Made by a program: the position numbers and the translations under genes. A stretch of DNA of 64,000 nt from NCBI GenBank assembly GCA_001189215.1, contig LFCR01000004.1, positions 22,153 to 86,152 of the forward strand, read 5' to 3'. The notes below the pieces were generated by a model, which was given only the letters and a program-made list of their open reading frames with translations, made no database searches and was not told where the DNA came from. Below, in pieces: positions 4,073 through 64,000 of the stretch. Positions within the stretch are counted from its first letter, which is position 1; the number at the start of each line of letters is the position of its first letter. The DNA comes from Parcubacteria bacterium C7867-008 (GTDB lineage Bacteria; Patescibacteriota; Minisyncoccia; Phycocordibacterales; Phycocordibacteraceae).

Positions 4073-5065
4073 ATGACCGACGCAAATTACGTCCCAACGA
4101 AATACGACTCAGTATTTTGGGTACCTACCGATCGCATCCAGCCCAATCCGTATCAGCCACGACGTGAATTTGATGAGGACCGTCTCAAGGCACTTGCAGA
4201 GAGTATTCGTCAGTATGGTGTCCTTCAGCCACTTGTTGTTACACGCACCGAAGTAGAGACCCTTAGTGGCGGTCTACAGAGTTCCTACGAACTTATCGCA
4301 GGAGAACGTCGTCTCCGTGCCTCTAAACTCATTGGTCTTAAAGAAGTTCCGGTCGTTATTCGTGTTGGCGAGCAGAGTGATAGTGTAAAACTTGAACTGG
4401 CTATTATTGAAAATGTTCAGCGTGAAGATCTGAACTCTATCGATCGCGCTAAGGCACTTGCACAGCTCGCAGCAGAGTTTGGTCTATCTCATGGTGAGAT
4501 TGGCGCTAAGGTGGGACGTAGCCGTGAGTATGTATCTAACTCCATTCGTTTACTTCTTCTTCCTGAAGCGATTCAACAAGCAGTAGTTGATAAGGAAATC
4601 ACGGAAGGTCATGCGCGTGCACTTCTCATGCTTAACGATAAGCCTGAAGAACGAGACACGCTCTTCAAGGAAATTGTTCTTAAGAAGACCTCAGTGCGTA
4701 TGGTAGAGCAACTCGCGCGTCGTCTTGCACAAGACAAGATTCGTAAACATGACAAGACACCGGAAATGATGGCGCTTGAGAAGTCTCTCACAGAAACTCT
4801 TGGTACCCGCGTGCTCATTGAGAATCGTCCCAAGGGAGGTCGGGTACTTATCGAGTTCTTCTCTTCTGAAGATCTCGCACACATCGCACAAATACTTGCT
4901 GAACGGCAGGAGCAAGAAGCAACCATGAGTAAGGCGGCACAATTGAGCGTTGTTGAAGCAGCAACACCAGACATGCCTATACATCCGAATACAACACAAC
5001 TAGCACCTATCGTTGAGGAAGCGGTTGATGAAGATCTGTACGCGGTAAGCAGCTTTTCAGTCTAG
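4073..5065 (+). CDS. parB: ParB/Spo0J-like partition (ParB N-terminal nuclease-like domain) protein
   Basis: YELIAGERRLRAS and NPYQPR-type ParB boxes, followed by an HTH region. No adjacent parA. Confidence 0.85.
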   Translation: MTDANYVPTKYDSVFWVPTDRIQPNPYQPRREFDEDRLKALAESIRQYGVLQPLVVTRTEVETLSGGLQSSYELIAGERRLRASKLIGLKEVPVVIRVGEQSDSVKLELAIIENVQREDLNSIDRAKALAQLAAEFGLSHGEIGAKVGRSREYVSNSIRLLLLPEAIQQAVVDKEITEGHARALLMLNDKPEERDTLFKEIVLKKTSVRMVEQLARRLAQDKIRKHDKTPEMMALEKSLTETLGTRVLIENRPKGGRVLIEFFSSEDLAHIAQILAERQEQEATMSKAAQLSVVEAATPDMPIHPNTTQLAPIVEEAVDEDLYAVSSFSV

Positions 5066-45777: not shown

Positions 45778-46135
45778 ATTGAGGCACCGGTACCGATGGG
45801 ACCACCGTTGCTGTCCGTAGGGGGAGTTCACATGGACTTTGTTTTTAAGTTGCGTTGTAGCGTGAGGTAGCTGGCCACCGATTGCCAGTGATCCTTACGC
45901 GGCGGTAATCACAGCCGGGCACATTCTGCTGGCACAGCCGCCACCAGCAAACCCCCGACCGACTTGCACTACCTGGGCACATAGGCGGAGCATCGGGTTA
46001 CAGAACAGGGATACATACCTCCAAAGGCGTGACCGCTATACGCGCACGCGATGCCTTCAAAGGCTGGAAGGGAGTAACACCGGGGCGACGCAGCTGCCAC
46101 ATGCAGCAACGCGTCGCCCCATTCCTTTTGACTGC
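45778..46135 (+). ncRNA. candidate structured ncRNA or gene remnant (family not identified)
   Basis: A roughly 360 nt GC-rich region with no credible ORF. Promoter-like TTGACG-16-TATCTT at 45741-45770. Internal stems. Ends in a strong terminator. Confidence 0.25.
46082..46130 (+). terminator. hairpin ggggcgacgc-N19-gcgtcgcccc plus attcctttt
   Basis: Perfect 10 bp GC stem followed by a T-run. Confidence 0.6.
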
Positions 46136-46149
46136 TATACTCTTTTCAT

Positions 46150-47133
46150 ATGCGTGGCACAGTAGTTGGAGTATTGCGCGGAGGTCCTTCACGAGAACAT
46201 GAAGTGTCACTTGCCAGTGGTCATGCGATCATCGCCAACCTTCCAAAGGAACACTTCACCGTTCGTGATATATACATAGACAAGCAAGGTGTGTGGCATG
46301 AACGTGGTCGTGTAGTAACACCACATCGTGCACTTCATTCAGTGGATGTGGTCATCGTTGGCCTCCACGGTGAATATGGAGAAGATGGAGAAGTACAGAA
46401 GCTCCTAGAGAAGAGTGGAGTTCCATACACTGGCTCAGATTCCTTTTCATCCTTTGTGGCAATGCACAAAGTGCTTTCTAAGGAGAAAGCAAAGCAAGCT
46501 GGACTCAAGACTCCCAACTACTACTACATAGAAGAAAGTACTCCACCACATCATGTGGAGCAGATGTTGCGTGATGTCGTGCGAACGTACCCACAACCAG
46601 TAGTGGTGAAGCCAACACGATGGGGATCATCCGTAGGGATAACTATGACAACGGGCTATGCACCACTTCATACCGCTGTAACAGGCCTTTTGGCGCAAGG
46701 AGCAGGTGGTGTATTGGTTGAAGAGTATATAAGAGGGACTGAAGCCACCACCGCAGTAGTAGAGGATATGCGTGGAGAGAAACTCTATGCACTACCATCA
46801 ATAGAAATCATTCCGCCAACATCAGACTTCTTCTCTTATCAGGCAAAGTATTCAGGCGACACACGAGAAATCTGCCCAGGACGTTTTGATAAGCAAACAC
46901 ATGCAGAACTAGAGCGTCAGGCACGCCTTATGCACGATGTACTTGGTCTCAGACACTATTCACGTTCTGATTTCATCGTCACCCCTAAAGGTATCTACTA
47001 CCTTGAAACCAATTCTCTGCCTGGATTAGCCCCCGAATGTCTCCTACCCAAGTCCCTTGATGCGGTAGGGGTATCATTCAGTGATTTCCTATCCCACTTG
47101 GTTGCACTTGCACGGGCAGGCAAGAAACGGTAA
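46150..47133 (+). CDS. ddl: D-alanine--D-alanine ligase
   Basis: ATP-grasp with an N-terminal Ddl domain (VLRGGPSREHEVSLASG). Confidence 0.85.
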   Translation: MRGTVVGVLRGGPSREHEVSLASGHAIIANLPKEHFTVRDIYIDKQGVWHERGRVVTPHRALHSVDVVIVGLHGEYGEDGEVQKLLEKSGVPYTGSDSFSSFVAMHKVLSKEKAKQAGLKTPNYYYIEESTPPHHVEQMLRDVVRTYPQPVVVKPTRWGSSVGITMTTGYAPLHTAVTGLLAQGAGGVLVEEYIRGTEATTAVVEDMRGEKLYALPSIEIIPPTSDFFSYQAKYSGDTREICPGRFDKQTHAELERQARLMHDVLGLRHYSRSDFIVTPKGIYYLETNSLPGLAPECLLPKSLDAVGVSFSDFLSHLVALARAGKKR

Positions 47134-47169
47134 AGTTTCCCCTATAGAAACGGCTTTTAGTCGTTTCTA

Positions 47170-47214
47170 TGCGGGCCGTTAGCTCAGTTGGTAGAGCGCT
47201 TCATTTGCAATGAA
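47170..47214 (+). pseudogene. truncated tRNA-Ala(UGC) gene, 5' half only (acceptor 5' strand, D-arm, anticodon stem-loop TTTGCAA)
   Basis: GCGGGCCGTTAGCTCAGTTGGTAGAGCGCTTCATTTGCAATGAA. No T-arm or acceptor 3' strand downstream. Overlaps the 3' end of the recombinase gene. Confidence 0.55.
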
Positions 47215-48685
47215 ATAACTTCTCGTCAAAAAGGAAGAAATAGAGACTGTGCTGCTCCCGTGTGTTGAGCTTGGTCCATATAGAATATGGCCTTTCGACC
47301 AACGTCTTTGATTTCTTTAGAGCAGTTTGAAATGGAATCGCAAAGTCCAATTTCGCACCCGATTCTGCCTCCAGTCCCTCTATCTCGCGGGCAGTCTGCT
47401 CCATTTCATGTTCGTATACATCCCTCAACTGTTCTGTCTTTGCTCGATAGGCCATATCAGCTAAGCCTCGTAGTTTCTCCCGTAACTTCTCGATTTTATG
47501 CGCATGAGTTGCCTCACGTTTTCCAACCTCAGCGATCTCCTCTTTCCAAACCGCTCTAAATACCTCCTCTACAACTTTAGAAACAGAAGGTTTGAGCTTC
47601 GAGGCGTGCATAACCTTTAAGAAATTACCTTCCAGCTCGGCTTTCTTTATAGACTTATTTTTAAAAACACATCCGGCAGTTTTACAAAGATAATACGGGT
47701 ATCTGTTACCATTATGGTTCTTACTAAAGGCTGCTGTTAATGATGCGCCACATACGCAGTTAATTAAGCCGCGCAAAGGGAAGTCAGATGATATATCCTG
47801 GCGCACCCATTTTGATACCTGAACCTTTTGAAGCCGCGCCTGAGTGGCTTCATAAGTGTTTGGAGAAATAAGTCCTTTATGGTGGCCCGGTCTGCGGCTA
47901 ACCTCCCATTCGATGTGCTCCACATAACCAGCGTAAAAAGGATCTTCAAGTAAGCTAGTAACTTGGGTGATATAGCTTTCGGGCGCCGGCCTCTTCCAAA
48001 AGCCTTTATCAATTAGATAGCGCGCCATATCAACCTTACGGACTAGCTTTCCATCAGCAAAGGCCTCTAGGGCCGGTTTAAGCACGTCCAAGCCCTCCCT
48101 GGAGGGCTCCAGGACCTTTGTGGTCTTGTTTCTTTGGTAGCCACGTTTTGTACCGCCAATGCAGTAGTAACCCGCCTCCATGCGCGCCTTCATTTTCTGT
48201 ATAACCTGTCTTCTGTTTTGCTCTCGCTCAAGCTGAGCCTGTGCTGCATGTATGGTCTCTATAAACCTAGCCTCGGGACCTTCGTTAAATGCAAAGTTAG
48301 GGCTTTCTGGTCGAGCTCCCCTAGCCTCAATTTCTAACCTGAGTTCAAGATAAGCCTGAGTGTCGCGAGCAATACGCTTCATGTCATCAAACAAAACAAC
48401 GTAACTTCTATGCGGGAACTTATCCAAGTACTTCAAGAGTTGAACAACACCAGCTCTGTTCCTAAAATCCCCGCCGCCCGTGAAGACATCTTGGAATACC
48501 TCGTCAATCTGATAGCTTCTTTGTTGCGCGTACTCTCTACAGCGAGCCTCTTGTGCTTCCATCCCATGACCTTCAGACGCCTGCTTGTCAGAAGAAACCC
48601 TGCAATAGATAACCGCATGCTCCTCAACAGAAGCTGATGTGGGTTGCAGTGTAATGTTACTTTTTTGTTTGGGCTTTTTGGACAT
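47201..48685 (-). CDS. large serine recombinase (integrase)
   Basis: N-terminal resolvase catalytic motif AVIYCRVSSDKQ, recombinase domain, zinc ribbon (CVCG...CKTAGC), and a C-terminal coiled coil. Confidence 0.85.
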   Translation of the reverse strand: MSKKPKQKSNITLQPTSASVEEHAVIYCRVSSDKQASEGHGMEAQEARCREYAQQRSYQIDEVFQDVFTGGGDFRNRAGVVQLLKYLDKFPHRSYVVLFDDMKRIARDTQAYLELRLEIEARGARPESPNFAFNEGPEARFIETIHAAQAQLEREQNRRQVIQKMKARMEAGYYCIGGTKRGYQRNKTTKVLEPSREGLDVLKPALEAFADGKLVRKVDMARYLIDKGFWKRPAPESYITQVTSLLEDPFYAGYVEHIEWEVSRRPGHHKGLISPNTYEATQARLQKVQVSKWVRQDISSDFPLRGLINCVCGASLTAAFSKNHNGNRYPYYLCKTAGCVFKNKSIKKAELEGNFLKVMHASKLKPSVSKVVEEVFRAVWKEEIAEVGKREATHAHKIEKLREKLRGLADMAYRAKTEQLRDVYEHEMEQTAREIEGLEAESGAKLDFAIPFQTALKKSKTLVERPYSIWTKLNTREQHSLYFFLFDEKLFHCK

Positions 48686-48944
48686 AGCTGTCTATTTCAT
48701 TTCGTGTGATCGTTCTGCAAAACTCTTCTAGGTATCGCAGTTGCTCAAGTACTTCTTCATCACTACTTCGATAATCATTAAGGATGTTACGAAAACGCTC
48801 TATTTTGATTATAGACCTGGATTCATGAGCAAACTGAGGCTGCCTGATATCAGCCTCAACGTTTACAAATGTTAACAATGGTTTTTTACGGTTTTTCCGG
48901 GTCATTTGTGTGACCTCGCAAGATAGAAAAGCAAAAAACTCCAA
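48657..48944 (-). CDS. small hypothetical protein upstream of and overlapping the recombinase start (possible regulator or directionality factor)
   Basis: The ORF overlaps the recombinase start by 29 nt. An internal ATG at 48905 gives an 82 aa product. Confidence 0.4.
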   Translation of the reverse strand: MEFFAFLSCEVTQMTRKNRKKPLLTFVNVEADIRQPQFAHESRSIIKIERFRNILNDYRSSDEEVLEQLRYLEEFCRTITRNEIDSYVQKAQTKK

Positions 48945-49157
48945 AACCAGATGCGCCTCTTATGAGGTGCACTTAGTTTTGGAGCCTTACTACTTACGGT
49001 GTCTTCCGTTTGTTGATCACGTCTTGCGACGCGTCCTATTGGCCTGTTTCTTTTCGCCGGCGGGGCCTGCTTAGAGTATAACCCAAAAGTACTGCATGCT
49101 AGGATATGCTAGGAACCAGCGCCTAAACCTACCAATCTGGTAGGCATGGCCAAATAA

Positions 49158-49311
49158 AACCTACGCGAGCAGAAGCGGCCTCATAGGCTGGCTCTACTCG
49201 CGTAGGTCGGGTGTCTCGAAAGGGCCCCGGGTGATGTCCGAAAGGGTGTCATCGCCGGTTCTGTGGGGCCGCTTCTGCGTACCTACAGATACGGATTACA
49301 AAACCTACGCG
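49158..49311. repeat. cluster of direct and inverted repeats: aaacctacgcga x2 direct plus one inverted copy, and a gcagaagcggcc/ggccgcttctgc inverted pair
   Basis: Seen directly, with mutually exclusive pairings. It sits in a 375 bp non-coding gap inside the putative element. Confidence 0.5.
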
Positions 49312-49318
49312 AACTAAT

Positions 49319-49537
49319 ATGAACACAAGAAAAGACGGACTTCTATCCGTAAAGGATTGGACCAGGAATGAGTATGGCCGGAATGCGCTGATCGCGTTAC
49401 TTGGTGGCCTAGTGCTCAATATGTCAGGTTATACGATTGGAGAGGTGTTTGGTTCAATACTGGCTCTGCTTGGGTTTGGATTAGGGGTAATATGGGCCTA
49501 TTTGAAGATAAGCAAGAAGGAGCCGGCATACAAATAA
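49319..49537 (+). CDS. small membrane protein (72 aa)
   Basis: Two TM helices. Confidence 0.4.
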   Translation: MNTRKDGLLSVKDWTRNEYGRNALIALLGGLVLNMSGYTIGEVFGSILALLGFGLGVIWAYLKISKKEPAYK

Positions 49538-49595
49538 CACTTTGACATTTGCAATCAGCATGTCCTTGCAGACTGGCTTCATGAAGCTACAATGA

Positions 49596-50789
49596 GTGTA
49601 CATGGATGCAAACACCCTACTCGAACTTATTCAACTGCTTGAAGCAGACGAAGGGCAGTTTACTATTGGCGCCCGCATAGAAGAGATAAGGACGCTTCTT
49701 TCTCAGAACGATCCAGCACAAAGTACAGCAATATCTACAAAACTAACCGAACTATTTACCGAAATAGCTTCCAGTAGGGCAAACCTTTTTAGCCAGACAG
49801 AGCTCGCAATCCTCAAAGGTCTCGATGCGGTTGACTACTTCGGAAGTGGATTGACCCAAGCACTTACAGAAATTACATCTGGATCAAAGACATACGAGCT
49901 TACATCTCGGCTTAGCGAGTTCTACACAGAGCGCAGTACAAAGTACAACAAGCTAGTCCAAATGAAGAACTCCATGCTGGAGAATGGCTTGGTAGCATAT
50001 GAACAAGAAGAAGATGAAATTGCTCTTACTATCCCAGGAAAGGAGGTGGATGCCTCAGAGCTCGCAGAGCATCTAAAGACATTTTCTGAATTCCTTCGTG
50101 CGGTTCAGGAGTGCACGCTTCCAGCAGGCCAAACGCCAACACCGGCAGAGATTGTGCGTGTAAGTCGAGGTAGCCTGAACTTTTTCGCGCAGGTAGATCC
50201 TGCAACACTAAAGGCTGTTCTGGAGATTATCGGCTCCCTCGCAACAATTTACCTTGCTGGAGTTGATATACGTAAGAAATTCAACTCAAAAACTCCTTTA
50301 AGTGAAGATGAGCAGGCCTCAATAAATCAGCTGGCTGAGACAATAGCGCAGAAGCGGGTGGATGCCTTTGTGGCTGAGACGGCTGCAAAACTGGCTAAGG
50401 ATAATCATGAACTCGGAAATCGAGTAAGTCGTTATTTGAAAATCCTTATAAAGTGGATGCCGTTAGGCATACATCTTGAGGTTGTCGTTGCAAAGACCGT
50501 TGAACCTGTCGACCTTAAAACAAGTGAAGGTAAGCAGATAAGGGCAAAACAGGCGACACTTCTGAAGGTAAATGAGATGTATAGCCTACCTATGGAACAC
50601 CTCAAGCTCCCTGAACCGCAAATAGCCGAGCAAGACGTAGCTATTCCGGCAGAAGAACCAACTGTTCCAATTGAGCCAGAACAAGAAGTGCCTATCGAAC
50701 CAGTGGCGCCCGCTGAACCTGAGAAGCTAGAACCAATGACAGAAAAAACTGTCGAAAACAGTCCTGAGCCAGATGAGCCAAGTGCGTAA
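49596..50789 (+). CDS. hypothetical alpha-helical protein with an acidic Pro/Glu C-terminal tail (397 aa)
   Basis: First gene of the three-gene operon. No catalytic motifs. Confidence 0.55.
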   Translation: MYMDANTLLELIQLLEADEGQFTIGARIEEIRTLLSQNDPAQSTAISTKLTELFTEIASSRANLFSQTELAILKGLDAVDYFGSGLTQALTEITSGSKTYELTSRLSEFYTERSTKYNKLVQMKNSMLENGLVAYEQEEDEIALTIPGKEVDASELAEHLKTFSEFLRAVQECTLPAGQTPTPAEIVRVSRGSLNFFAQVDPATLKAVLEIIGSLATIYLAGVDIRKKFNSKTPLSEDEQASINQLAETIAQKRVDAFVAETAAKLAKDNHELGNRVSRYLKILIKWMPLGIHLEVVVAKTVEPVDLKTSEGKQIRAKQATLLKVNEMYSLPMEHLKLPEPQIAEQDVAIPAEEPTVPIEPEQEVPIEPVAPAEPEKLEPMTEKTVENSPEPDEPSA

Positions 50790-50802
50790 ATGAAATCATT
50801 AA

Positions 50803-51417
50803 ATGATCTGGTATTACCACCATCATCCTGAAGTTCTTTCGCTCGTAAAGGATTTGGCTACGATATCAGCGGCCATAATTGCTTCATACGTTGCTCTTGC
50901 AGGTTTAGGTGCTTGGAAAAGACAATTGCACGGAAAGGAAGACTATCAATTGGCGAGACGTTATTTACGCGAGGTATATCGTTTGCGCAACGGTCTTAAA
51001 TCAGTAAGAAATCCTTATATATCAGTAGGAGAAATGCATGCAGCATTGAAGGAAAGCGGTGAAGAAAACCCAGACCCTATCGCCGATAGAAAGAAAACAG
51101 ACTTCGCTGTCTACAGCCGAAGATGGGAAGAAGTAAAGCAGGCGTCAGTTGCTCTTGATGTCGAGCTTCTCGAAGCAGAGGTACTCTGGGGCAAAGAAGC
51201 TGTTTCTAAGCAGAAGCCCTTGCGTCAAAAATCCAACGAGCTATTTAGTGCATTACAACAGCATCTAAATGAACGTCCGCGTGTGAATATAGATGATTTA
51301 CTGTACGACGCAGGCGATAAGGATAAATTCACTCTTCAAGTTGAGGAAGCTATAAAGCCCATAGAAGAATACTTGGCCCCGCATTTGAAAATAGAAGGAA
51401 GAATCTCAACAAGCTAA
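50803..51417 (+). CDS. hypothetical membrane-anchored protein (204 aa, one N-terminal TM)
   Basis: Its stop overlaps the next start (ATGA). Confidence 0.55.
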   Translation: MIWYYHHHPEVLSLVKDLATISAAIIASYVALAGLGAWKRQLHGKEDYQLARRYLREVYRLRNGLKSVRNPYISVGEMHAALKESGEENPDPIADRKKTDFAVYSRRWEEVKQASVALDVELLEAEVLWGKEAVSKQKPLRQKSNELFSALQQHLNERPRVNIDDLLYDAGDKDKFTLQVEEAIKPIEEYLAPHLKIEGRISTS

Positions 51418-52151
51418 TGATTTCAAGAACCCGTCTCGACCGGATCGCTTTTCTTTCGTTTCAAAATGCTTTGCGTCTGCATCATGATGCAATAATCCTC
51501 TTTAAGGAGAAGAGTTATCCATCGGCTTTTTTCCTTTCAATACTTGCGCAGGAAGAGATAGGGAAAATGCACCTTGTTAATGATCAGTCATGGCGTTCTG
51601 GAGAAAATGAAGCTGGGTTGGCTGAAATCAAGGACGAAGTCAAAAAGAAAAAATACCAGGCAGAATTGGAGAGTATGGAAGAATATGTAATTAAGGCTCT
51701 GTATCAACATCCACTTAAGCAAGGACACTTTTATCGTAATTCTCCAGCGGAAGAGCTGTGGATTCCGAAGAAAGGGAAACTCAGAAAGGAGTACCAAGGC
51801 ATCTGGGATGGAATGCTTGAGGCAAGAAAACAAAACGCTGTGTATGTTGGCTTTGCAAGAAGGAGAGGGAAGATAGATACCACTAGACTTCACCATCCTT
51901 GGGAAATTACGAACGGAATGGCCGCAAGTCATATCACCAGAGTAAATGATTATCTATTGGTTTTTGGGTTGGGTTTAAGATATACGTCCTATGCGTATGA
52001 GAACGAGGAAATAGTTTCAATGATTAAGCATAGACGCTTTTTGAAGGAGATTGCTGCTAGTTGGATGCGTAGCGGTACGTTAGCTCAGAAGGAGATAGAG
52101 AAGCTCGAAAGGGCATTAAAGGATCCAATAGTTTCTGACGCTCGATTTTAA
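51417..52151 (+). CDS. AbiV-like abortive-infection family protein (putative)
   Basis: N-terminal FQNALRLHHDAIILFKEKSYPSAFFLSILAQEEIGK resembles the AbiV family signature. Assignment is from memory of the family alignment. Confidence 0.4.
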   Translation: MISRTRLDRIAFLSFQNALRLHHDAIILFKEKSYPSAFFLSILAQEEIGKMHLVNDQSWRSGENEAGLAEIKDEVKKKKYQAELESMEEYVIKALYQHPLKQGHFYRNSPAEELWIPKKGKLRKEYQGIWDGMLEARKQNAVYVGFARRRGKIDTTRLHHPWEITNGMAASHITRVNDYLLVFGLGLRYTSYAYENEEIVSMIKHRRFLKEIAASWMRSGTLAQKEIEKLERALKDPIVSDARF

Positions 52152-52301
52152 ATCCTCTTCTGTGGTAGCAGATGGGAGAAATCCTTAGTGTTCCGCAAGG
52201 GCTAATTGCAATGGAATGCACGTTTGATAGTAGTCCCAGAAGCGAGATAGATAGCTTTTTAAGGAGTTCAAAGTCTTGATTGATATGTCCACCCAAACAA
52301 G

Positions 52302-52330
52302 AAAAGACCCCGCAAGGGTCTTTTCTTGTT
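52302..52330 (+). terminator. hairpin aagaccc-cgcaa-gggtctt plus ttcttgttt
   Basis: Perfect 7 bp stem plus T-run. Confidence 0.65.
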
Positions 52331-52355
52331 TCAATCACAACCATATACTTATGAC

Positions 52356-52862
52356 ATGGAAGGCCCTCCCCCAAAGCTCGATAAGCAACCTGTAAACTCA
52401 GAAGATATAGCAAACCCGAACAGAATATTTGAGTGGGGTTTTATGCCAGACAATACTGATGTTCCAACAAAACCAGAGAATGTATACAGACAAATCAAGG
52501 TAGAAGGAGTCGATGATCTTAATGAGAGTGGTGTGGTACGAAATGCAGGAAGTGCAGGAAAAGGACGAGTACGTAAATACGGAGACCGTGTGTATTGGAC
52601 ACAAGGTAAAGAGGGAGAATTTCATAATGTACAACCAGGCCACGCGGTACTTGAAGCACCGCTATCTGTTGTAAGTTCCCGTGTGGTGACTGCAGAGGAC
52701 ATCATTGGTATTCATGTACGCAATGAAGCAGGAGAGGTTGAGAACCGCGCCCGCGCCATACCTGAAGTAGCTGTTGATGCATCAGGTACTGAGCAGAAAC
52801 CAGAAGAAGGTTCTAATCTAGAAGATGTTCGAAATAGGCTTGGTTTGTCTCCAAAGGAGTAA
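52356..52862 (+). CDS. hypothetical protein (168 aa)
   Basis: The track ORF starts at a TTG inside the terminator; it is trimmed to the ATG at 52356. Confidence 0.45.
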   Translation: MEGPPPKLDKQPVNSEDIANPNRIFEWGFMPDNTDVPTKPENVYRQIKVEGVDDLNESGVVRNAGSAGKGRVRKYGDRVYWTQGKEGEFHNVQPGHAVLEAPLSVVSSRVVTAEDIIGIHVRNEAGEVENRARAIPEVAVDASGTEQKPEEGSNLEDVRNRLGLSPKE

Positions 52863-52872
52863 TTTAGATTCT

Positions 52873-53055
52873 ATGCACACTGAATTAATAGCTGGAGCAG
52901 CATATTTGTTTAATTCAGGTCTACGCGAAGGAATGAATGATCCCATTCACGCGCTGTATACAATGGTTGGTATTGCGGTGCTGGTTGTGGCTGGAATCTC
53001 CGTTGGAGTGTATAGGAACAGACAAAAAAGAATGAAGAAACGTGATTCCTGGTAG
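52873..53055 (+). CDS. small membrane protein (60 aa)
   Basis: Single TM plus basic tail. Confidence 0.35.
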   Translation: MHTELIAGAAYLFNSGLREGMNDPIHALYTMVGIAVLVVAGISVGVYRNRQKRMKKRDSW

Positions 53056-53056
53056 A

Positions 53057-54181
53057 TCAAGCGCGCTTGAATATAAAGCGTGAAAGTACAAGAAAGCTTT
53101 CAACAGCAATAATGAGCGCAGCAATTGCCTGCGCCAATATGTACCAAACTCCTAGGTAGTGCACGAGAAGGAATACAATTCCCGTATTTAGAACAAGATT
53201 AATGGAAGCAACAAGCAAGTGTAAGGGAACTTGTATTGCAGTAGATTTTTGATGCTTGTAGTTGAAGGTCCAGTACTTGTGGAGAAGGAAGTTAGCTATT
53301 CCTGAGGTTGCAAAAGCAACAATTGATGAGATTAGATACCAGACATGGGAGATGTCGGTAAGGAGGTAGAGGACAGTAACATTAACCAACACGCTTATAG
53401 CTCCTGTAGTGAGGAAACGTAATGCCTTAGGAACCTCTTTACCCATGGGGGCGCTATGTATACCAAGTCTGAAGAACACGATCGCTAGGAGGCAATATAT
53501 GCCATGTCTGGCACGTATCTTCTTTCCTTCCGTGACGGTACGCGGATGGTAGGTGATTGGCACTTGAGCAACGGTACCTGCGTGCTGGAGGATATATGTC
53601 ATCTCAATAGCATCAAATACGAAGTCGTCACTAGGAGCTTCTAGGAGTGCTGGTATGCGCTCTCGAGGGAAGACTTTGTAGCAACACGGAACGTCCTTAA
53701 ATGAGCTACTGAAGGCAAGATTATAAAACGAGGAAACAACACGACCTCCAAAAAACAGCATGCGATTGCGATGAGCATCTTCTTCGGTAAGAGTGCGGTA
53801 TCCAAACACGGTATCTACCTTTCCTTCAATGATCGGAGCAAGTAAAGAAGGATACTGACCTGGATCAATCTCAAGGTCTCCATCTTGAATGATGCAGTAT
53901 GCACCGGTTGCATTACGAAGACCTTCCTTAACCGCACCTCCTTTGCCGAGGTTCTGGGGAAGATACACAACCTGTACGGTATTCCCTGCATCACCAGATG
54001 AAAGTGTACCCAATGCTGCGTGTGTTTCTTCGTTAGATCCATCATCCACAACAATAATCTCTTTGGACCAGCCAGAAGGAAGTCCTGTTGCAATGACTCG
54101 TTCAACAACCAATGCAATAGTGTCAGCTTCATTGAAGCAAGGAATGATTACACTCAGGAGTGTTTTCGGAGTGTTACTCAT
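53057..54181 (-). CDS. family 2 glycosyltransferase (Dpm1/GtrB-like) fused to a GtrA-like C-terminal TM domain
   Basis: LSVIIPCFNEA...VVDDGS GT2 motifs. C-terminal 4 TM GtrA-like region. Confidence 0.75.
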   Translation of the reverse strand: MSNTPKTLLSVIIPCFNEADTIALVVERVIATGLPSGWSKEIIVVDDGSNEETHAALGTLSSGDAGNTVQVVYLPQNLGKGGAVKEGLRNATGAYCIIQDGDLEIDPGQYPSLLAPIIEGKVDTVFGYRTLTEEDAHRNRMLFFGGRVVSSFYNLAFSSSFKDVPCCYKVFPRERIPALLEAPSDDFVFDAIEMTYILQHAGTVAQVPITYHPRTVTEGKKIRARHGIYCLLAIVFFRLGIHSAPMGKEVPKALRFLTTGAISVLVNVTVLYLLTDISHVWYLISSIVAFATSGIANFLLHKYWTFNYKHQKSTAIQVPLHLLVASINLVLNTGIVFLLVHYLGVWYILAQAIAALIIAVESFLVLSRFIFKRA

Positions 54182-55775
54182 AGAATTTTACGAGTGCATA
54201 CTTCCCAGACCGCACCACAGCTCTCTTCTCACAAGACGCAACACCTTCCGTGAAGTCCGTCATATCAATGAAGCCGTATTGAAGATCATGTGCCTTTCCA
54301 TAGTCTGCAAAGGCAACACAATCCTTTGTTTTAAGTACATCACGTACTTCGTTGTATCTAGCAAACCACTGGTCCGCTGCGTCCCCATCATATAGAGCCA
54401 CGTTACCATCCTTAGAAGACACGTATGTTGGCTTATTAGCGTATGCGCGTATGAGATTTGCTTCACCATTTGGATTAGCAAGAATCATAGTTTGAGGTCT
54501 AAGAAGAGTATCAACTTCAACGAGTGCAGAGATGAGTTCCTTTGTATCTTTAGACTCCCTATATCCGTCACTAAGCCCCTCAACAACATTCATTACAGAT
54601 GTCTGCGCGCAAAGTATGCCTATGAGTAGTACAGCAAAGATGACCTTCATCCTGCGACTAGTTCCAAACTTAGCCGTGAAAAGTATGTATCCATACGTAC
54701 CAACAAGAACCATTGATGAAAGGTAGAACCATACAGAAGCTCGAGCCAACAGATACTTTGCATACGGTGTGAACTCAAGACCAACACCAATAAGAGAAAG
54801 GATAAGCGTGCTCCACCACAGAGCCATCCACACAGTCATAGAAGGTCCTTCTGGTAAATTTTTCTCTCTACGACACCAGAACCATAGTCCAAGCACGAGT
54901 GCTACATAAATAATCTGCTTACGGAGATAGTGCAGAAGAAGATAGGACCACGAGTGCAGTACTGCCGTGTAGTGATCAAGGATTATGGATGGATTGGGAG
55001 GTGAGAACTGTCCTATACGGAAAAACACATCATAGAGCGCAAGGGGAGCAGCAGCTAAGAACACGAGTCCGTATGCAATGAACTCAAGCTTGATAGAACG
55101 TGTTCGTATAACCTCAGCAAACAAAACGATCATCGCCACATGGAAGAAGATAACGGGATACCAGTTCGATAGAAGACCAAGCAAGGCAAAGAAGATAAAG
55201 AACTTCTTTCGTGAGCCCCCCTCAACTGCTTTGAAATACAGAATGAGCAACCAAACAATAATTCCAAGTCCTAATTCCTTAGGTACAAAGCCTTTCACTA
55301 AGAACCCCCAGCCAGACAATCCCAAGGATATAACGGGAATAATGCTAACTAGTGCAATACAGAAGGCGAGTACTCTGTTACGTGTTGTATAGAGAACCAA
55401 TGAATAGACTCCGCTCAGGAATATAAGAAGGGAAATAGTAGATATAAAAATACTCCAATCCAGTACTCCTACGCCAAAGAAGTCTCCAATACGAACAAAC
55501 ACGGCATCGATAAACAACTGCCCGGTTGGCCAGGAACGATTATTTTGGAACATGACATCGTTCTCAAAGTTTCCTGCGTACGAGGTAGAGAACTCAGTCC
55601 AATGGACTGCATGTACGAAGGCGTCAGAAGAGAGTTGATATTTAAGGGGTACTCCAGAAACAGCTAGAAAGGAGATGTTAAGCAGGAAGGCACAAAAGAA
55701 TACGATAGCGATAAGAATAAGATCAGTCTTGATCCGTGCGAGTCCCTGCCAGTGCATTGCATGGAAGTATAGCAA
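54174..55775 (-). CDS. polytopic membrane protein, GT39/GT83 (PMT/ArnT)-like glycosyltransferase candidate
   Basis: More than 10 TM helices plus a C-terminal soluble domain. Overlaps and is co-oriented with the GT2 gene. Confidence 0.45.
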   Translation of the reverse strand: MLYFHAMHWQGLARIKTDLILIAIVFFCAFLLNISFLAVSGVPLKYQLSSDAFVHAVHWTEFSTSYAGNFENDVMFQNNRSWPTGQLFIDAVFVRIGDFFGVGVLDWSIFISTISLLIFLSGVYSLVLYTTRNRVLAFCIALVSIIPVISLGLSGWGFLVKGFVPKELGLGIIVWLLILYFKAVEGGSRKKFFIFFALLGLLSNWYPVIFFHVAMIVLFAEVIRTRSIKLEFIAYGLVFLAAAPLALYDVFFRIGQFSPPNPSIILDHYTAVLHSWSYLLLHYLRKQIIYVALVLGLWFWCRREKNLPEGPSMTVWMALWWSTLILSLIGVGLEFTPYAKYLLARASVWFYLSSMVLVGTYGYILFTAKFGTSRRMKVIFAVLLIGILCAQTSVMNVVEGLSDGYRESKDTKELISALVEVDTLLRPQTMILANPNGEANLIRAYANKPTYVSSKDGNVALYDGDAADQWFARYNEVRDVLKTKDCVAFADYGKAHDLQYGFIDMTDFTEGVASCEKRAVVRSGKYALVKFYE

Positions 55776-55801
55776 AGATATCTATGCGTTATACTGACGC
55801 C

Positions 55802-56206
55802 ATGAACACGAAACTCATAAAACTATTCTTTATAACGTTGCCTATATTGGCAGTAATAGACTTCTGCTGGGCCGGCATACTCGCTACTGATTTCTATCGC
55901 GGACAGGTGGGAGATTTACTCTCAATGAATCCAATCCTTCCTCCACTGGTTCTCTTCTACATTATCTACACGGCAGCGGTTGCATACTTTGTAATCAGTC
56001 CTGCACTAGCTGTTCGTTCATACAAGTTACTTGTCATTAACGCAGCGTTCCTTGGTCTGACCGCATACGGTACCTATGATCTCGTTACGCTTGGTCTCAC
56101 ACCCGGATGGACCCCCCTTGTTACCGTTGTAGATATTATTTGGGGTATGGTACTTACCACCGCAGTTTCTTCTATCGTGTACGCAATCGCTATACGTTGG
56201 AAGTAG
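55802..56206 (+). CDS. small integral membrane protein (DUF2177-like?)
   Basis: 4 TM helices. The family name is tentative. Confidence 0.45.
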   Translation: MNTKLIKLFFITLPILAVIDFCWAGILATDFYRGQVGDLLSMNPILPPLVLFYIIYTAAVAYFVISPALAVRSYKLLVINAAFLGLTAYGTYDLVTLGLTPGWTPLVTVVDIIWGMVLTTAVSSIVYAIAIRWK

Positions 56207-56215
56207 CAAGCCTGT

Positions 56216-56252
56216 AAAAAGAATCCTCCGCAACAAGCGGAGGATTCTTTTA
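56216..56252. terminator. hairpin aagaatcctccgc-aacaa-gcggaggattctt (bidirectional)
   Basis: Perfect 13 bp stem between convergent genes. Confidence 0.65.
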
Positions 56253-57317
56253 CTTACCTTGTCCGTAGAACTTCTTGAGCATCTTTACGTGCTCTTCGTA
56301 TGTCTTTGAGCAGTGGAACTCTCCTTTTGAATCATGGAAATAGAAGAGACAGTCTGTCTTCTTTGGATTAAGTGCTGCAACAACAGCTGCTACTGATGGA
56401 TTTGAGATAGGACCAGGTGGAAGTCCTTTATTCTGGTACGTGTTGTATGGAGACTTTATGTATTTATCCTTTGGTACTACTGGTGGCCACCACGTACCTT
56501 GCTTACCAGTGGTTTGATTTGCCTTCGCATACTGAAGTGTTGCGTCTATTTGTAGGTTCATACCAACAAACATACGATTCCAGATGATACCTGAGATGAG
56601 GCGCATATCGTCCCACCCACCTGCTTCACGTTCAATAAGTGAAGCAACGGTAATAGCGTCAGCTACGGGAACCTGCTCCTCAGTGCTACTGCTGTACCGC
56701 GCAAGAATATCTTCTTCAAAGCGATGATGGAGAAGTACTTCAACTTGATCAGGATCGGTAACGCTAAGGAAATAAGTTCCAGGAACAAATTGTCCTTCAG
56801 GTAATTCTTCGTCACGAGCGGTTGCGTACTTCAAGAACTCAGCTTTCTCTGCAGGAGTCCAATGAAGTGTTCCTCCAACTAGATTTGCAACTTGTTCCTT
56901 ACGAAAGCCTGGTTTGATCGTAACGAACAGGGTATTTGCACCAGCGACTTGCCTATAGGCAGGGAAGTTTGAGATAGCAACAGCAACCTGCGTAAAGATA
57001 TTGCCTGCCTGAGTCGCTGCAGCGGTAAGACTTGTTGGCTTCACATCAAGAATAGCTTCAACCTGCGGGTTCTCAATAATGGTCTTGTTTGCTGGATCAA
57101 CGGTAACTGTGAACTTAGGTTGCGGTGGTCGGACACTATCTTGGATCGCTAGATCAATGGCAAGAATGGTAGGCAGCGAAAAGAAACCGATCACGAGCAC
57201 TAGTGTGCTCGCCGCAACGGGGAGCAGATTTAGTACGCGCTTCTTCGGTGATGATTTCTTGCGGGACGGACTGGTACCTGTTGGTATCAGTGGGCCGGAA
57301 AATTTCATCTTCGGCAT
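56250..57317 (-). CDS. mltG: endolytic murein transglycosylase MltG (YceG family)
   Basis: N-terminal TM and the YceG core (LIEREAG, YNTY, GLPPGPISNP). The start is trimmed to MPKMKF at 57317. Confidence 0.75.
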   Translation of the reverse strand: MPKMKFSGPLIPTGTSPSRKKSSPKKRVLNLLPVAASTLVLVIGFFSLPTILAIDLAIQDSVRPPQPKFTVTVDPANKTIIENPQVEAILDVKPTSLTAAATQAGNIFTQVAVAISNFPAYRQVAGANTLFVTIKPGFRKEQVANLVGGTLHWTPAEKAEFLKYATARDEELPEGQFVPGTYFLSVTDPDQVEVLLHHRFEEDILARYSSSTEEQVPVADAITVASLIEREAGGWDDMRLISGIIWNRMFVGMNLQIDATLQYAKANQTTGKQGTWWPPVVPKDKYIKSPYNTYQNKGLPPGPISNPSVAAVVAALNPKKTDCLFYFHDSKGEFHCSKTYEEHVKMLKKFYGQGK

Positions 57318-57420
57318 TGCACGTATTGTAACGAACGAATGCAACATCGTGAAATGTATTTGTCCACTGATTTCATCTTCGTTGTATAGACATACCCTCA
57401 GACGGTGGTACGGTCTATCT

Positions 57421-57969
57421 ATGAAGCCAAAGGCTCTCCCTCCTACTCTCACTGAACGCGTAACGACGTGGATCGGTTCACGCATGTCACTTGTTGCACA
57501 TACGATATTCTTTATCGGGTGCTTCTTCACTGTGGTACTTGGACTTATCACTCTTGAAACTATGCTCCTTGTTCTCACCACAGCGGTCTCTCTTGAGGCC
57601 ATTTATCTTGCCATCTTCATTCAGATGACGGTTAACGCTAACACCGCTAGTCTTCGTGAAGTGGAGGAAGACATTGAAGAAATTCAGGAGGATGTGGAAG
57701 AACTGGGAGAAGACTTGGATGAGATTCAGGAAGACATTGGAGAGATTCAGGAGGATGTCGAGGAAATCAGCGAAGACATCGATGAAATTCAAGAAGACGT
57801 TGAGGAGTTGAGTGAAGAGGAGGAGAAAGAGAAAGAAGAAGCTGCAAAGCCAAAACGTAAGACAGTAAAAAAGACTACAGCAACAGAAGCAGAACTCCTT
57901 GAGCAGCTCTCACAAGATGTTGCTAAGCTTCTCGCAGATCTAGAGGCACTAAAGAAAGGTAAGAAATAG
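57421..57969 (+). CDS. DUF1003-like membrane protein with acidic EEIQEDVEEL tandem repeats
   Basis: Two TM helices, then 4-5 copies of a roughly 8 aa acidic repeat. The track ORF N-terminus, which overlaps mltG, is rejected. Confidence 0.5.
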   Translation: MKPKALPPTLTERVTTWIGSRMSLVAHTIFFIGCFFTVVLGLITLETMLLVLTTAVSLEAIYLAIFIQMTVNANTASLREVEEDIEEIQEDVEELGEDLDEIQEDIGEIQEDVEEISEDIDEIQEDVEELSEEEEKEKEEAAKPKRKTVKKTTATEAELLEQLSQDVAKLLADLEALKKGKK

Positions 57970-57973
57970 CGAA

Positions 57974-58001
57974 ACCCGCCCGGTCTAGGACGCGGGCGGG
58001 T
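57974..58001. terminator. hairpin acccgcccg-N10-cgggcgggt
   Basis: Perfect 9 bp GC stem between convergent genes. Confidence 0.55.
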
Positions 58002-58025
58002 GATAGCTGAAGAGTCTGTCGACCG

Positions 58026-58346
58026 TTATTCAACGACCTCACAGCACTTTTTGGTGAACTGGAGATAGTCACCAAACATCTCACGATCCCAATACACAGC
58101 AACACCCTCTCGACCAGCTGTGCGAAGTGCGTCGATTGCTTTCGAACGCAGCACGATGTGGACATCCTTATGCTGTTCGCAGGGTGTCCCCCTCATCGGA
58201 ACCCGAAGGAAATCCTCCTTCGTTGCGAGTGGAATTTCAACTCCCACCCATTCCTTACGAACTCCAACAGGCGCAATAGAACCTGGTGGTGTGCTGACAA
58301 TACGAATAGAACTCATCAGTGCCTCCTTGCGACTGGTTGTGCGCAC
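58026..58346 (-). CDS. hypothetical protein (about 100 aa)
   Basis: ORF only. An alternative start lies at 58316. Confidence 0.35.
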   Translation of the reverse strand: MRTTSRKEALMSSIRIVSTPPGSIAPVGVRKEWVGVEIPLATKEDFLRVPMRGTPCEQHKDVHIVLRSKAIDALRTAGREGVAVYWDREMFGDYLQFTKKCCEVVE

Positions 58347-58433
58347 AGTACCACAATCAGAATTTTAGTCCTAAACAACCTAAATATACTGTTTGGTCAT
58401 ATCAATCCAGGCTGATACCATAGAGAAAAGGCT

Positions 58434-59180
58434 ATGGAGAAAGGCATTCACGTCGTCCTGAAGGCGGAGCAGCTTGGCACGTTCTTAGGGTTACCTATAA
58501 CAAACTCGCTCATAATGACGTGGATCGTCATGGCGGTGCTTATTGGTTTTGCGCTCATATTCCGATCAAAGCTCGCTATGATCCCTGGAAAGTTGCAGGC
58601 AGGAGTTGAATGGCTCTTTGAGAGTGTCCTTAATTACATGACCGAAACACTTGAGGACGAGAAGATGGCTCGCAAATTCTTCCCTCTCATCATGACCATC
58701 TTCTTATTCCTACTCGTTGCTAATGAGTTAGCGTTCCTTCCGGGTGTTGGATCCATTGGTATTACTGAACATGGAGAATTCCTTCCATTTCTTCGTGCAC
58801 CTTCGGCAGACCTCAATCTCACCCTTGCACTCGCAATAATCTCCTTCCTAACCATAGAGATCACAGGAATCGTTGCTTTGGGCTTTTATAAGTATGCCGG
58901 CAAATATGTTAATTTTAGTTCACCGGTGAACTTTGTGGTGGGCATCATCGAGCTCCTTTCTAACCTAGGGCGTCTCATTTCCTTCTCCTTCCGTCTCTTT
59001 GGAAACATCTTTGCAGGAGAAGTGATGATCTTGGTAGCAGGATTCTTTGTTGCATACCTTTTGCCGGTGCCACTCATGGCATTTGAGGTATTCGTTGGCT
59101 TCATTCAGGCAGTGGTGTTCTCAATGCTCACCCTGTTCTTCATCAAGCTGGCAATCATGGATCCGCACGAATCGCACTAG
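58434..59180 (+). CDS. atpB: F0F1 ATP synthase subunit a
   Basis: LRLFGNIFAGE motif. 5-6 TM. Confidence 0.9.
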   Translation: MEKGIHVVLKAEQLGTFLGLPITNSLIMTWIVMAVLIGFALIFRSKLAMIPGKLQAGVEWLFESVLNYMTETLEDEKMARKFFPLIMTIFLFLLVANELAFLPGVGSIGITEHGEFLPFLRAPSADLNLTLALAIISFLTIEITGIVALGFYKYAGKYVNFSSPVNFVVGIIELLSNLGRLISFSFRLFGNIFAGEVMILVAGFFVAYLLPVPLMAFEVFVGFIQAVVFSMLTLFFIKLAIMDPHESH

Positions 59181-59236
59181 GACACTAGTGGGTTCATGCG
59201 GCTCCGGGATGGAGCAGATTATTTGGTAACTAGTAA

Positions 59237-59470
<234 letters not shown>

Positions 59471-59485
59471 TACTACGATTGGTAC

Positions 59486-59932
59486 ATGGATCAGCTTCTT
59501 GAAGCATTCGGCATTCAACTCCCTCTACTGCTCGCGCAGTTGGTGAACTTCGGTGTGCTCTTTGTAGCACTTACATATCTGCTCTATAAGCCGGTTATGA
59601 AGACACTGGATGAGCGTCGTACCAAGGTTGCGCAAGGTGTACTTGATGCAGAAGAAGCTGCACAAAAGCTTGCCTCTGCAGACGAGGAAGCATCCACCAC
59701 TGTGCAAACTGCGGAAAAGGAAGCTGAAGGTATTGTCGCTACGGCTCGTGAAGAGGCAGGTAGTGAGAAGACACGCATTGTTAAGGAAGCTGAGGCACGT
59801 GCCGCAAGTGTTGCAGCAGATGCTGAAGCACGTGCAAAAGAAACCGCAGAGAAGTCTCTACGCGAAAGCGAGAAGGAGATTGCGCGGCTTGCGATGCTTG
59901 CTGCTGAGAAAGCGATGCGTAAAGAATCCTAA
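59486..59932 (+). CDS. atpF: F0F1 ATP synthase subunit b
   Basis: N-terminal TM plus a long Ala/Glu/Lys coiled coil. Confidence 0.85.
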   Translation: MDQLLEAFGIQLPLLLAQLVNFGVLFVALTYLLYKPVMKTLDERRTKVAQGVLDAEEAAQKLASADEEASTTVQTAEKEAEGIVATAREEAGSEKTRIVKEAEARAASVAADAEARAKETAEKSLRESEKEIARLAMLAAEKAMRKES

Positions 59933-59933
59933 T

Positions 59934-60296
59934 ATGGAGAAAGCATACGCACAGGCAATTCAGAAACTTCTTAGTGAGCCAAACGCTGACGAAGCTAAGA
60001 TCGTGACGAATCTTGTTTCGCATCTTGAGGCAACAGGAAAATTGAAGATGCTACCGCGTATCAATCGTGAGCTTAAAACATTGCTTGCTCGTGAACTTAA
60101 ACCTTCTGTTGAAGTTGCTCACCGTGACGAAGCTGAAGACGCATTGAAGGCTGCTGCAAAAGCAGGTATCCATGCAGAACATGCAAAGATTAATCCATCC
60201 CTTATCCATGGATGGCGTGCTCGCCAAGGCAGCACCCTCGTGGATCATTCAGGCAAACGAGCGTTGATAGATCTCTATCGTCGCATCACTGCATAA
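59934..60296 (+). CDS. atpH: F0F1 ATP synthase subunit delta (short)
   Basis: Position between b and alpha. 120 aa OSCP-like C-terminal part. The track ORF 59610..60296 N-terminus, which overlaps atpF, is rejected. Confidence 0.7.
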
Positions 60297-60318
60297 TTAT
60301 TTATTTACCAACGTACGT

Positions 60319-61875
60319 ATGGAAAGCATCATCAAACGCATCGAAAGTGAGATCGCTGGCTTCGCTCCAAGTGGAAGCACTGAGGAGACGGGTATCGTCC
60401 GTACTACCGGAGACGGTATTGCGGAGATCGACGGACTCCAGAACGCACTCATGAGTGAGATGGTGCTCTTTGATCCAACCTTTGATCGTACCCTTGAGGC
60501 TGCACTTAAGGATGCAGATCCTATCTATGGTCTCGTCCTTAACCTTGAGGAGGACGGTGTACGCGCCGTAATTCTTGGAGACGCATCAAAGGTGTATGAG
60601 GGTATGCTCGTACGTCGTGTGGGACGTCTTCTTTCAGTACCTGTGGGTGAGTCTCTTATAGGCCGCGTTATCAATCCACTTGGTGAAGCGGTTGATGGTA
60701 AGGGCGCAACACACGCAAAGGATATTCGCCCTATCGAACGTGAAGCATACGGCGTTATGGACCGAGCAGGTGTTAACCAGCCTCTTCATACCGGAATCAA
60801 AGCTATTGATGCCATGATCCCCATTGGTCGTGGTCAGCGTGAGCTCATCATTGGTGATCGTGGTGTAGGAAAGACCGCTATTGCCATTGATACCATCTTG
60901 AACCAGAAGTCTGAAGATCCGAAGACTCGTCCTATTTGTATCTATGTGGCGATTGGTCAGAAGGAATCTAAGACCGCAAAGATCGTAGCGCAGCTCGCTG
61001 ATGCGGGGGCAATGGAATACACCATAGTTATTACCGCACCAGCATCAAGCCCTGCAGCCTTCCAGTTTCTTGCACCATTTGCAGGAGCAACGGTAGGTGA
61101 ATTCTTTATGGAACAAGGCAAAGATGCACTCGTTATCTACGATGACCTCTCCAAGCACGCAGTCGCATATCGTCAAATGTCTCTTCTCCTTCGTCGTCCA
61201 CCAGGGCGTGAAGCATATCCAGGAGACGTCTTCTATCTTCACTCTCGACTACTTGAGCGCTCAGCAAGGCTTTCTAAGGAAAAGGGTGGCGGTTCACTCA
61301 CCGCACTCCCTATCATCGAAACACAGGAAGGTGATATCTCTGCATACATTCCAACCAACGTGATTTCAATCACAGATGGACAAATCTTCTTGCTTGCTGA
61401 TCTCTTCAACAAAGGACAGCGTCCCGCTATTGATGTCGGTAACTCAGTGTCTCGTGTGGGATCGTCTGCACAGACCAAGGCGATGAAGAAGGTGTCTGGA
61501 AAAATCAAACTTGAGCTCGCTCAGTTCCGGGAACTTGAAGCATTCATGCAGTTCGCGTCAGATCTTGATGCTGAAACCAAGCAGCGCATTGATACTGGTC
61601 GTCGTATGACGGAGGTCCTTAAGCAGAATGTTGGCGAGCCGCTTCCATTTGAGATGCAGGCTGCCGTTATCTTTGCTGCAACAAATGGATACCTTAATAC
61701 ATTTGCTCCTGAAGAAACCCATGGCGCTGAGATTCGCCTCCGTGACTACCTTGAGCGTGAGGTTGATGGAGTTCTCTCTTCAATCCGCGAGGAGAAGCAG
61801 ATCAGTGAGGAAACAGAAGCAACACTTCGTGCTGCACTTGAGAAGTTCGTAGAGCGCACTAGTGAGTCTAAATAA
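60319..61875 (+). CDS. atpA: F0F1 ATP synthase subunit alpha
   Basis: Walker A GDRGVGKT and alpha-subunit blocks. Confidence 0.95.
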
Positions 61876-61880
61876 CCACA

Positions 61881-64000
<2,120 letters not shown>

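Follow-up and report, generated by a model that had tools for sequence, protein, structure and literature searches.

By its layout, the ssrA-specific genomic island of Dehalococcoides may be regarded as the closest described system to the locus studied here; its serine integrase, DsiB, is encoded by a gene that overlaps attL (McMurdie et al. 2011, PMC3146451). A further point of comparison is provided by the SSV-type 'suicidal' integrases of archaeal viruses and plasmids, which are described in a review as tyrosine recombinases found exclusively in Archaea, the self-partitioning layout being exclusive to these archaeal tyrosine integrases (PMC8371274).

We analyzed a stretch of 64,000 nucleotides (the window) from the NCBI metagenome-assembled genome (MAG) of Parcubacteria bacterium C7867-008 (hereafter 008), for which an initial annotation had reported half of a tRNA-Ala gene, described as a pseudo-tRNA. 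We estimate at roughly 85% the probability that this half tRNA is a repeat-induced assembly artefact and that the organism has a complete, ordinary tRNA-Ala(UGC) at this place. The biology of the locus, which involves a mobile element encoding a large serine recombinase (LSR), is of more interest than the artefact itself. The coordinates of the features are collected in Table I.

Table I. Features of the tRNA-Ala locus and of the adjacent element (window coordinates)
Feature	Coordinates	Strand	Remarks
D-Ala-D-Ala ligase (Ddl)	46150..47133	+	Conserved host gene upstream of tRNA-Ala; Pfam, synteny
Retained part of the 132-bp repeat, both NCBI MAGs	47115..47214	+	Runs from the last base that differs to the breakpoint; exactly 100 nt
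tRNA-Ala 5' part	47173..47214	+	Acceptor 5' strand GGGCCGT, D-arm, anticodon stem-loop without G43
LSR ORF as deposited	47201..48685	-	494 aa; converges on the half tRNA
Junction without the 121 bp	47214..47215		Compared with L003 16968-17088 (BLAST)
Small ORF	48657..48944	-	95 aa (ORF list), 82 aa (JGI gene call); overlaps the LSR start, just upstream
LOOT RNA (RF03000)	49120..49253	+	61.5 bits, gathering score 46.4; divergent from the LSR gene, part of the element
Element cargo	49319..52151	+	72-aa ORF, 397-aa and 204-aa proteins, 244-aa AbiV-type HEPN protein
Detached LSR C-terminal segment	52185..52292	-	VD-ISIKTLNSLKSYLSRFWDYYQTCIPLQLALAEH, then stop; far end of the element
attR core GTCCAC	52287..52292	+	Same bases as tRNA positions 68-73 plus 1 in attL (intact assembly)
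Native hairpin	52295..52331	+	Fold -22.9 kcal/mol, z -8.8

The tRNA-Ala fragment in the deposited sequence

The window contains an exact copy of positions 1-42 of the Parcubacteria tRNA-Ala(UGC). It parses as GGGCCGT-TA-GCTC-AGTTGGTA-GAGC-G-CTTCA-TTTGCAA-TGAA, where GGGCCGT occupies tRNA positions 1-7, the single G is G26, CTTCA covers positions 27-31, the loop TTTGCAA holds the anticodon UGC and TGAA corresponds to positions 39-42. Six other Patescibacteria genomes have complete tRNA-Ala(tgc) genes that begin with the same 42-mer, which places the half tRNA far beyond chance. The Rfam tRNA model (RF00005) scores it at 25.5 bits, short of the gathering score (29), the window version of the tRNA folds poorly (-10.6 kcal/mol, z +0.7), and ARAGORN, one of the programs that the initial annotation had proposed as a check, calls no tRNA at this place, its only calls in the whole window being tRNA-Trp, tRNA-Leu and tRNA-Gln. 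Judging from the 42-mer, the acceptor 5' strand, D-arm and anticodon arm of the initial annotation are real, and its anticodon loop, TTTGCAA, agrees with the parse; the acceptor strand, on the other hand, is GGGCCGT from 47173 and not GCGGGCC. The breakpoint had been placed within the anticodon loop, which is incorrect: the loop and four of the five bases of the 3' strand of the stem are retained, and the divergence starts after the anticodon arm, between tRNA positions 42 and 43 (hereafter 42/43), at window 47214/47215.

Regular expressions for a T-arm or an ACGGYCC acceptor 3' strand returned nothing downstream in the whole window, and what had been claimed for the next 2 kb thus holds well beyond them. 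The true tRNA 3' half has no copy anywhere in the window (exact 31-mer, or up to 6 mismatches), no acceptor 3' strand complementary to GGGCCGT is present near the locus on the correct strand, and group I and group II intron families gave no match at the gathering score in the window and none at E <= 10 within 46000-64000. A downstream 3' exon with its intron, named in the initial annotation as possible counter-evidence, was therefore looked for in the window and not found, in agreement with the earlier view that the gene is not an intron-containing tRNA.

Other assemblies of 008 and of its sister MAG

Contigs for comparison came from one JGI sample (3300001199) and one SRA run (SRR2043728, Logan), reached by exact-protein look-ups; the JGI and Logan assemblies may share raw data with each other. 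In the BLAST alignment of JGI contig J055_10000359 (L003), window 47215-64000 has an ungapped 100% match of 16,786 bp; we then observe 121 extra bp, followed by window 47214-47169 (46 bp), again at 100%. Logan contig SRR2043728_25785 (L004) matches window 47215-58335 (11,121 bp, 100%, no gaps) and goes on through 116 of the 121 missing bases before it stops, within the tRNA, at position 48. The 121 bp comprise tRNA positions 43-73 (GATGTCGCAGGTTCGAATCCTGTACGGTCCA), with the T-arm and an acceptor 3' strand that forms a G3:U70 pair, the attL core GTCCAC, a hairpin, and the remaining codons of the LSR, whose conserved C-terminus (...CYHPKNGFQTRNIATAARLFEGFAAVDSSNVD...) is restored. Writing breakpoints as slashes, the intact form of 008 reads GCAATGAA/GATGTCGC ... 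GTGGTAGC/ATAACTTC and the deposited junction GCAATGAA/ATAACTTC (also written GCAATGAA/ATAACTTCTCG), with no microhomology. At the tRNA locus of L003, ARAGORN calls a tRNA-Ala(tgc), Rfam gives 73.1 bits and the sequence folds as a cloverleaf (-27.3 kcal/mol). The missing 3' half, which was to be sought elsewhere in the genome according to the initial annotation, is carried in place by L003, and the presence of an intact tRNA-Ala at the same spot in other assemblies does not bear out a genuine pseudo-tRNA.

Scanning a genome collection with the 42-mer retrieved a second MAG of the same submission, C7867-007 (LFCQ01000003.1; hereafter 007), with approximately 80% sequence identity to 008. Both have UvrC, Ddl, the tRNA, an island and a glycosyltransferase in synteny, and the homology between them is lost past the tRNA and picks up again at window 53061. 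The breakpoint is observed at the same 42/43 in the two MAGs, with different sequence after it in 007, where 45 bp are missing and the deposited junction is GCAATGAA/TAAGTCAAC, also written GCAATGAA/TAAGTCAA; the only bases shared at the 007 endpoints are the AA in front of each. JGI contig J055_10000581 (L018) has the complete tRNA and is otherwise identical to NCBI 007 over 10,559 bp, and Logan contig SRR2043728_292663, starting at tRNA position 46, carries the 3' part of the 007 tRNA. Scans of a metagenome contig collection for the deletion junction and for a 30-mer downstream of the 007 tRNA returned no match; as that 30-mer is present in L018, the collection lacks this sample and neither negative bears on the junction.

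The two genomes have in common an exact repeat of 132 bp, made up of a 57-nt leader, the 73-nt tRNA and CA. Upstream, the last base that distinguishes them is 47115 (G in 008, A in 007), from which it is observed that the part of the repeat retained before the breakpoint is of the same length in both MAGs (Table I). JGI and Logan contigs (L001, L002, L003, L004, L018 and L019) end or break inside the repeat, as expected for an unresolved repeat across genomes. The other tRNA genes of the window, 71-83 nt long, are shorter than the repeat and intact.

The large serine recombinase and its attachment site

The 494-residue ORF that converges on the half tRNA encodes a large serine recombinase: Pfam recognizes the domains Resolvase (PF00239, E = 4.5e-22), Recombinase (PF07508, E = 2.6e-5) and Zn_ribbon_recom (PF13408, E = 1.2e-5), all of the serine recombinase type and none a tyrosine recombinase catalytic domain, and the serine motif YCRVSSDKQ is visible in the translation. 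The window protein is 100% identical to the record of Parcubacteria bacterium C7867-008; the exact-protein look-up with the 494-residue recombinase returned nothing on record. Its genuine coding sequence within the window is 47215-48685 (minus strand), and the four codons and stop that close the deposited ORF (FHCK, stop) come from the antisense strand of the tRNA anticodon arm, as a consequence of the 121-bp gap. The intact LSR in L003 has 541 residues and ends inside the antisense of the tRNA D-loop, and homologues, with 37-62% identity, are mostly about 510-600 residues long. They possess a conserved tail, ...Y..K.G[YF][RQ]T.....A.RLFE.F......V[DE]..., which is missing only from the window protein and from a few other short or truncated matches. 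In 81 of the best 120 homologues the protein ends in V[DE]xxG[FIVL]EP..., which is the antisense translation, in a fixed frame, of the acceptor and T-arm of a tRNA or tmRNA. A few homologues (P0011, P0054 and P0108) have an alternative ending, ...VD-I..K.L..IK.YLSRFW.YYQ..P.LQ.AL...

When the tails of these three proteins were used in tblastn searches, each recovered the segment at the far end of the element that is listed in Table I as detached (E = 5.7e-10, 5.2e-5 and 2.6e-4 for P0011, P0054 and P0108, respectively). On the recombinase strand this tail runs from window 52292 to 52188, and equivalent detached segments are found in L012 (3390-3497) and L013 (3470-3568), with E-values from 2.6e-4 to 1.2e-13 across the elements; the LSR genes of these relatives and of L020 are located at 10001-11626 (L012), 10001-11641 (L013) and 1067-2737 (L020). 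It was by means of this protein tail, and not of DNA repeats, that the far end of the element was located, as BLAST found no att direct repeats, the core being only 6-9 bp long. In the sense of the recombinase gene the cores are GTGGAC in 008, TGTGGAC in L012, where the target is the tRNA-Ala next to Ddl, and TGTGGAGAT in L013, where it is a tmRNA; in all three cases the core is the 3' end of the RNA gene. Joining the 008 ORF in silico at GTGGAC to the reverse complement of the sequence that ends at 52286 yields an ORF of 555 residues, which aligns with un-integrated homologues, and in P0011 (L020), P0054 and P0108 the ORF is contiguous across GTGGAC; no contiguous form was observed for the 008 element. 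The circular attP junction of the 008 element is accordingly predicted as ...GATTGATAT-GTCCAC-ATTAGAGG....

The same core is observed at both ends, the recombinase gene lies next to one of them and the synteny of the host is interrupted, as in an integrative element. On these sequence grounds, the intact tRNA-Ala is the predicted attL of an LSR element of about 5.2 kb, and the order of the true locus would be Ddl, intact tRNA-Ala, attL and the element. The attP site is predicted to lie within the LSR ORF. By integrating at tRNA positions 68-73 plus 1, the element would swap the last ~33 residues of the LSR, detaching the corresponding codons, which in the un-integrated (attP) form would be contiguous with the ORF. 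With the crossover core at its very 3' end, the tRNA is left whole by integration.

Content of the element

The small ORF that overlaps the start of the LSR gene has no family match and might encode a regulator or a directionality factor. The LOOT RNA has counterparts in the same arrangement in L012 (9349-9458), L013 (8174-8292) and L020 (407-525); in four of the five elements checked it lies 0.4-1.8 kb upstream of the LSR gene and divergent from it; neither L021 nor any of five related loci without recombinase has it. LOOT RNA appears to be a component of LSR mobile elements, which gives this orphan RNA a genomic context. In the cargo, the 72-residue ORF has no family match and the 397- and 204-residue proteins have no Pfam or PADLOC match, and the AbiV-type HEPN protein (51417-52151) is recognized by both Pfam (PF18728, E = 2.7e-19) and PADLOC (AbiV, E = 8e-8). 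Together, the genes of the last three proteins (49596-52151, plus strand) may constitute a three-gene defence module.

The hairpin that follows attR is presumably the original terminator of the tRNA-Ala, displaced by about 5.2 kb by the element. A simple terminator scan did not list it, and no T-tail follows its stem. Directly 3' of the tRNA, the element supplies another hairpin (-27.8 kcal/mol, z -4.9), situated at about 17000-17045 of L003 and missing from the window. It sits in the coding region of the LSR (residues ATAARLFEGFAAV) and is conserved in L012 at about 11500-11560. This DNA may serve at once as tRNA terminator and as conserved protein-coding sequence.

Host locus and related tRNA-Ala loci

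Upstream of the tRNA, the window contains genes for UvrA, UvrC and Ddl. The last of these is found directly upstream of tRNA-Ala also in 007, L007 and L012, a Ddl-like 3' end is present in L008, and in a related organism Ddl, an intact tRNA-Ala and the recombinase gene are located on one 117-kb contig.

Several further duplications were observed at loci of this kind. In the 007 contig L005, the 3' end of the tRNA (GGTCCA) occurs with native downstream sequence in two tandem copies (2277-2325 and 3297-3345), the downstream sequence matching that directly after the tRNA in L007 and L008; the same contig has a 63-nt direct repeat (3078-3140 and 4973-5035). The repeats of L005 look like several recombinase-less island remnants accreted at the same tRNA-Ala. 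L010 and L011 contain, no more than about 100 nt downstream of tRNA-Ala and immediately past the tRNA terminator, a partial copy of its 3' region in inverted orientation (GGACCGTACAGGATTCGAA), which in L011 is interrupted by an insertion; this copy could be what is left of a recombinase tail, or else a convergent pseudo-tRNA. A hairpin-like sequence of L007 (4985-5024) contains a second copy of the 11-12 nt with which the tRNA starts (GGGCCGTTAGCT), approximately 40 nt upstream of the complete tRNA-Ala.

Origin of the truncated gene

Most likely, the half tRNA is present in the record without being a feature of the organism. The exact repeat common to the co-occurring 007 and 008 would have led to a mis-join or collapse, and in this way 121 bp would have been lost between 47214 and 47215 of the NCBI 008 MAG; the exact software step is one that we infer. 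As in repeat-induced mis-assembly of MAGs, the defect lies inside an exact repeat of two co-assembled organisms, this repeat exceeds the length of a 100-nt read, contigs from other assemblers are broken there, and the retained length is 100 nt in both MAGs. This length fits a limit set by the sequencing reads, whereas an exact limit of 100 nt would be respected by no biological process. What differs here from such mis-assemblies is that the join is seamless, without Ns, and that the loss extends past the shared repeat into unique sequence, by 88 nt in 008 and by 12 nt in 007, right-hand endpoints for which a simple read-length rule does not account.

As the junctions stand in the deposited NCBI sequences of two MAGs, the losses of 121 bp (008) and 45 bp (007) could also be real deletions in the sequenced populations, or a minority or sample-specific allele. 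A real deletion in 008 would inactivate the tRNA, remove attL, cut the tail of the recombinase and lock the element in place. We regard this explanation as unlikely. Indeed, two organisms only about 80% identical would need independent deletions starting from the same nucleotide, in an apparently single-copy tRNA: the 42-mer occurs once in 007, and GCA and GCG, for which this tRNA is needed, make up 61% of the 394 alanine codons of ten window genes, making its real loss from both organisms implausible. Further arguments against deletion are that the breakpoint is situated exactly 100 nt from the last strain-specific base and that in the JGI and Logan contigs the sequence continues uninterrupted across both junction points. 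Deletion mediated by the recombinase was considered and rejected, neither junction having the two-base ambiguity expected of exchange at a shared central dinucleotide, which makes a serine-recombinase product unlikely. A hairpin or direct repeats as the cause of the endpoints were likewise rejected, as no similarity of the flanks was seen by eye. That the truncation is real in both Parcubacteria, with a tRNA-Ala(UGC) made from a separate 3' half joined as RNA or supplied by a second copy, appears very improbable.

The half tRNA has the recombinase gene as its immediate neighbour, with an ORF that enters the anticodon arm, as if the element had integrated in the middle of the tRNA and carried the 3' half to its other end. 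The chances of this are slight in the extreme: in three integrated elements and in un-integrated homologues the core GTCCAC is placed at tRNA positions 68-73 plus 1, the tRNAs next to the integrated copies of L003 and L012 are intact, and the far end (52287-52331) consists of the 6-bp core and the native hairpin only, with no 3' half. A splitting of the tRNA at 42/43 by the recombinase is refuted by the mapping of the core to the tRNA 3' end and by these intact tRNAs, and the recombinase therefore does not explain the break. The clean 5' half with its intact anticodon arm, and the lack of any other tRNA-Ala in the window, would also suit a split tRNA whose 5' half is joined at the RNA level to a distant 3' half, or a gene with a long intron. 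Split tRNA genes of Nanoarchaeota have a separate gene for the 3' half and complementary GC-rich leaders flanking the halves. They and intron-containing tRNAs resemble the NCBI record in having a 5' tRNA portion without an adjacent 3' portion; the break here is at 42/43 instead of 37/38, and the window has no 3'-half gene, leader or intron. To our knowledge, no split tRNA gene of such a kind is known in Bacteria. This explanation is scarcely credible in view of the 64 kb without a 3' half or a match to group I or II intron families, the antisense recombinase coding sequence that follows the half in place of a complementary leader, and the contiguous gene in other assemblies of the same organism.

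The reading as an assembly artefact has consequences for the records. The deposited sequences of 007 and 008 need corrections of +45 bp and +121 bp, respectively. The gap would otherwise wrongly suggest two small-genome bacteria without tRNA-Ala(UGC) and a truncated recombinase. More generally, caution is called for with tRNA "pseudogenes" in MAGs, since behind such a call there can be an assembly gap induced by a repeat.

Comparison with known integrases and islands

The element of 008 and its relatives point to a widespread family of LSR elements in Patescibacteria that integrates at the 3' ends of tRNA and tmRNA genes. The DsiB islands (PMC3146451) likewise have an LSR gene of about 540 codons next to attL and oriented towards the RNA gene, with an ORF that crosses attL into the antisense of this gene (541 residues in the intact form here). 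They also integrate into the 3' end of a tRNA-like gene that occurs in a single copy and is left intact, and they are short, carry cargo and undergo tandem accretion, here seen in 007. On the other hand, the target is a tRNA-Ala in the present case (a tmRNA in the related L013), the hosts are Patescibacteria, and the core repeat measures 6-9 bp as against 20 bp. No counterpart of the small serine recombinase DsiA or of the six-gene integration module was found, the neighbouring ORFs having no Pfam or PADLOC resolvase match. For the DsiB islands, the parts of PMC3146451 drawn on here mention no conserved C-terminal coding segment at the distal end, such as the present elements have.

It is in this detached segment that the elements resemble the SSV-type integrases, in which the attachment site is also located inside the integrase ORF and the gene is partitioned on integration, as in the three integrated elements described here. 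They differ in that the enzyme is a bacterial LSR and that only the last ~33 codons are detached. A self-partitioning layout in an LSR contrasts with the review that limits it to the tyrosine integrases of Archaea (PMC8371274).
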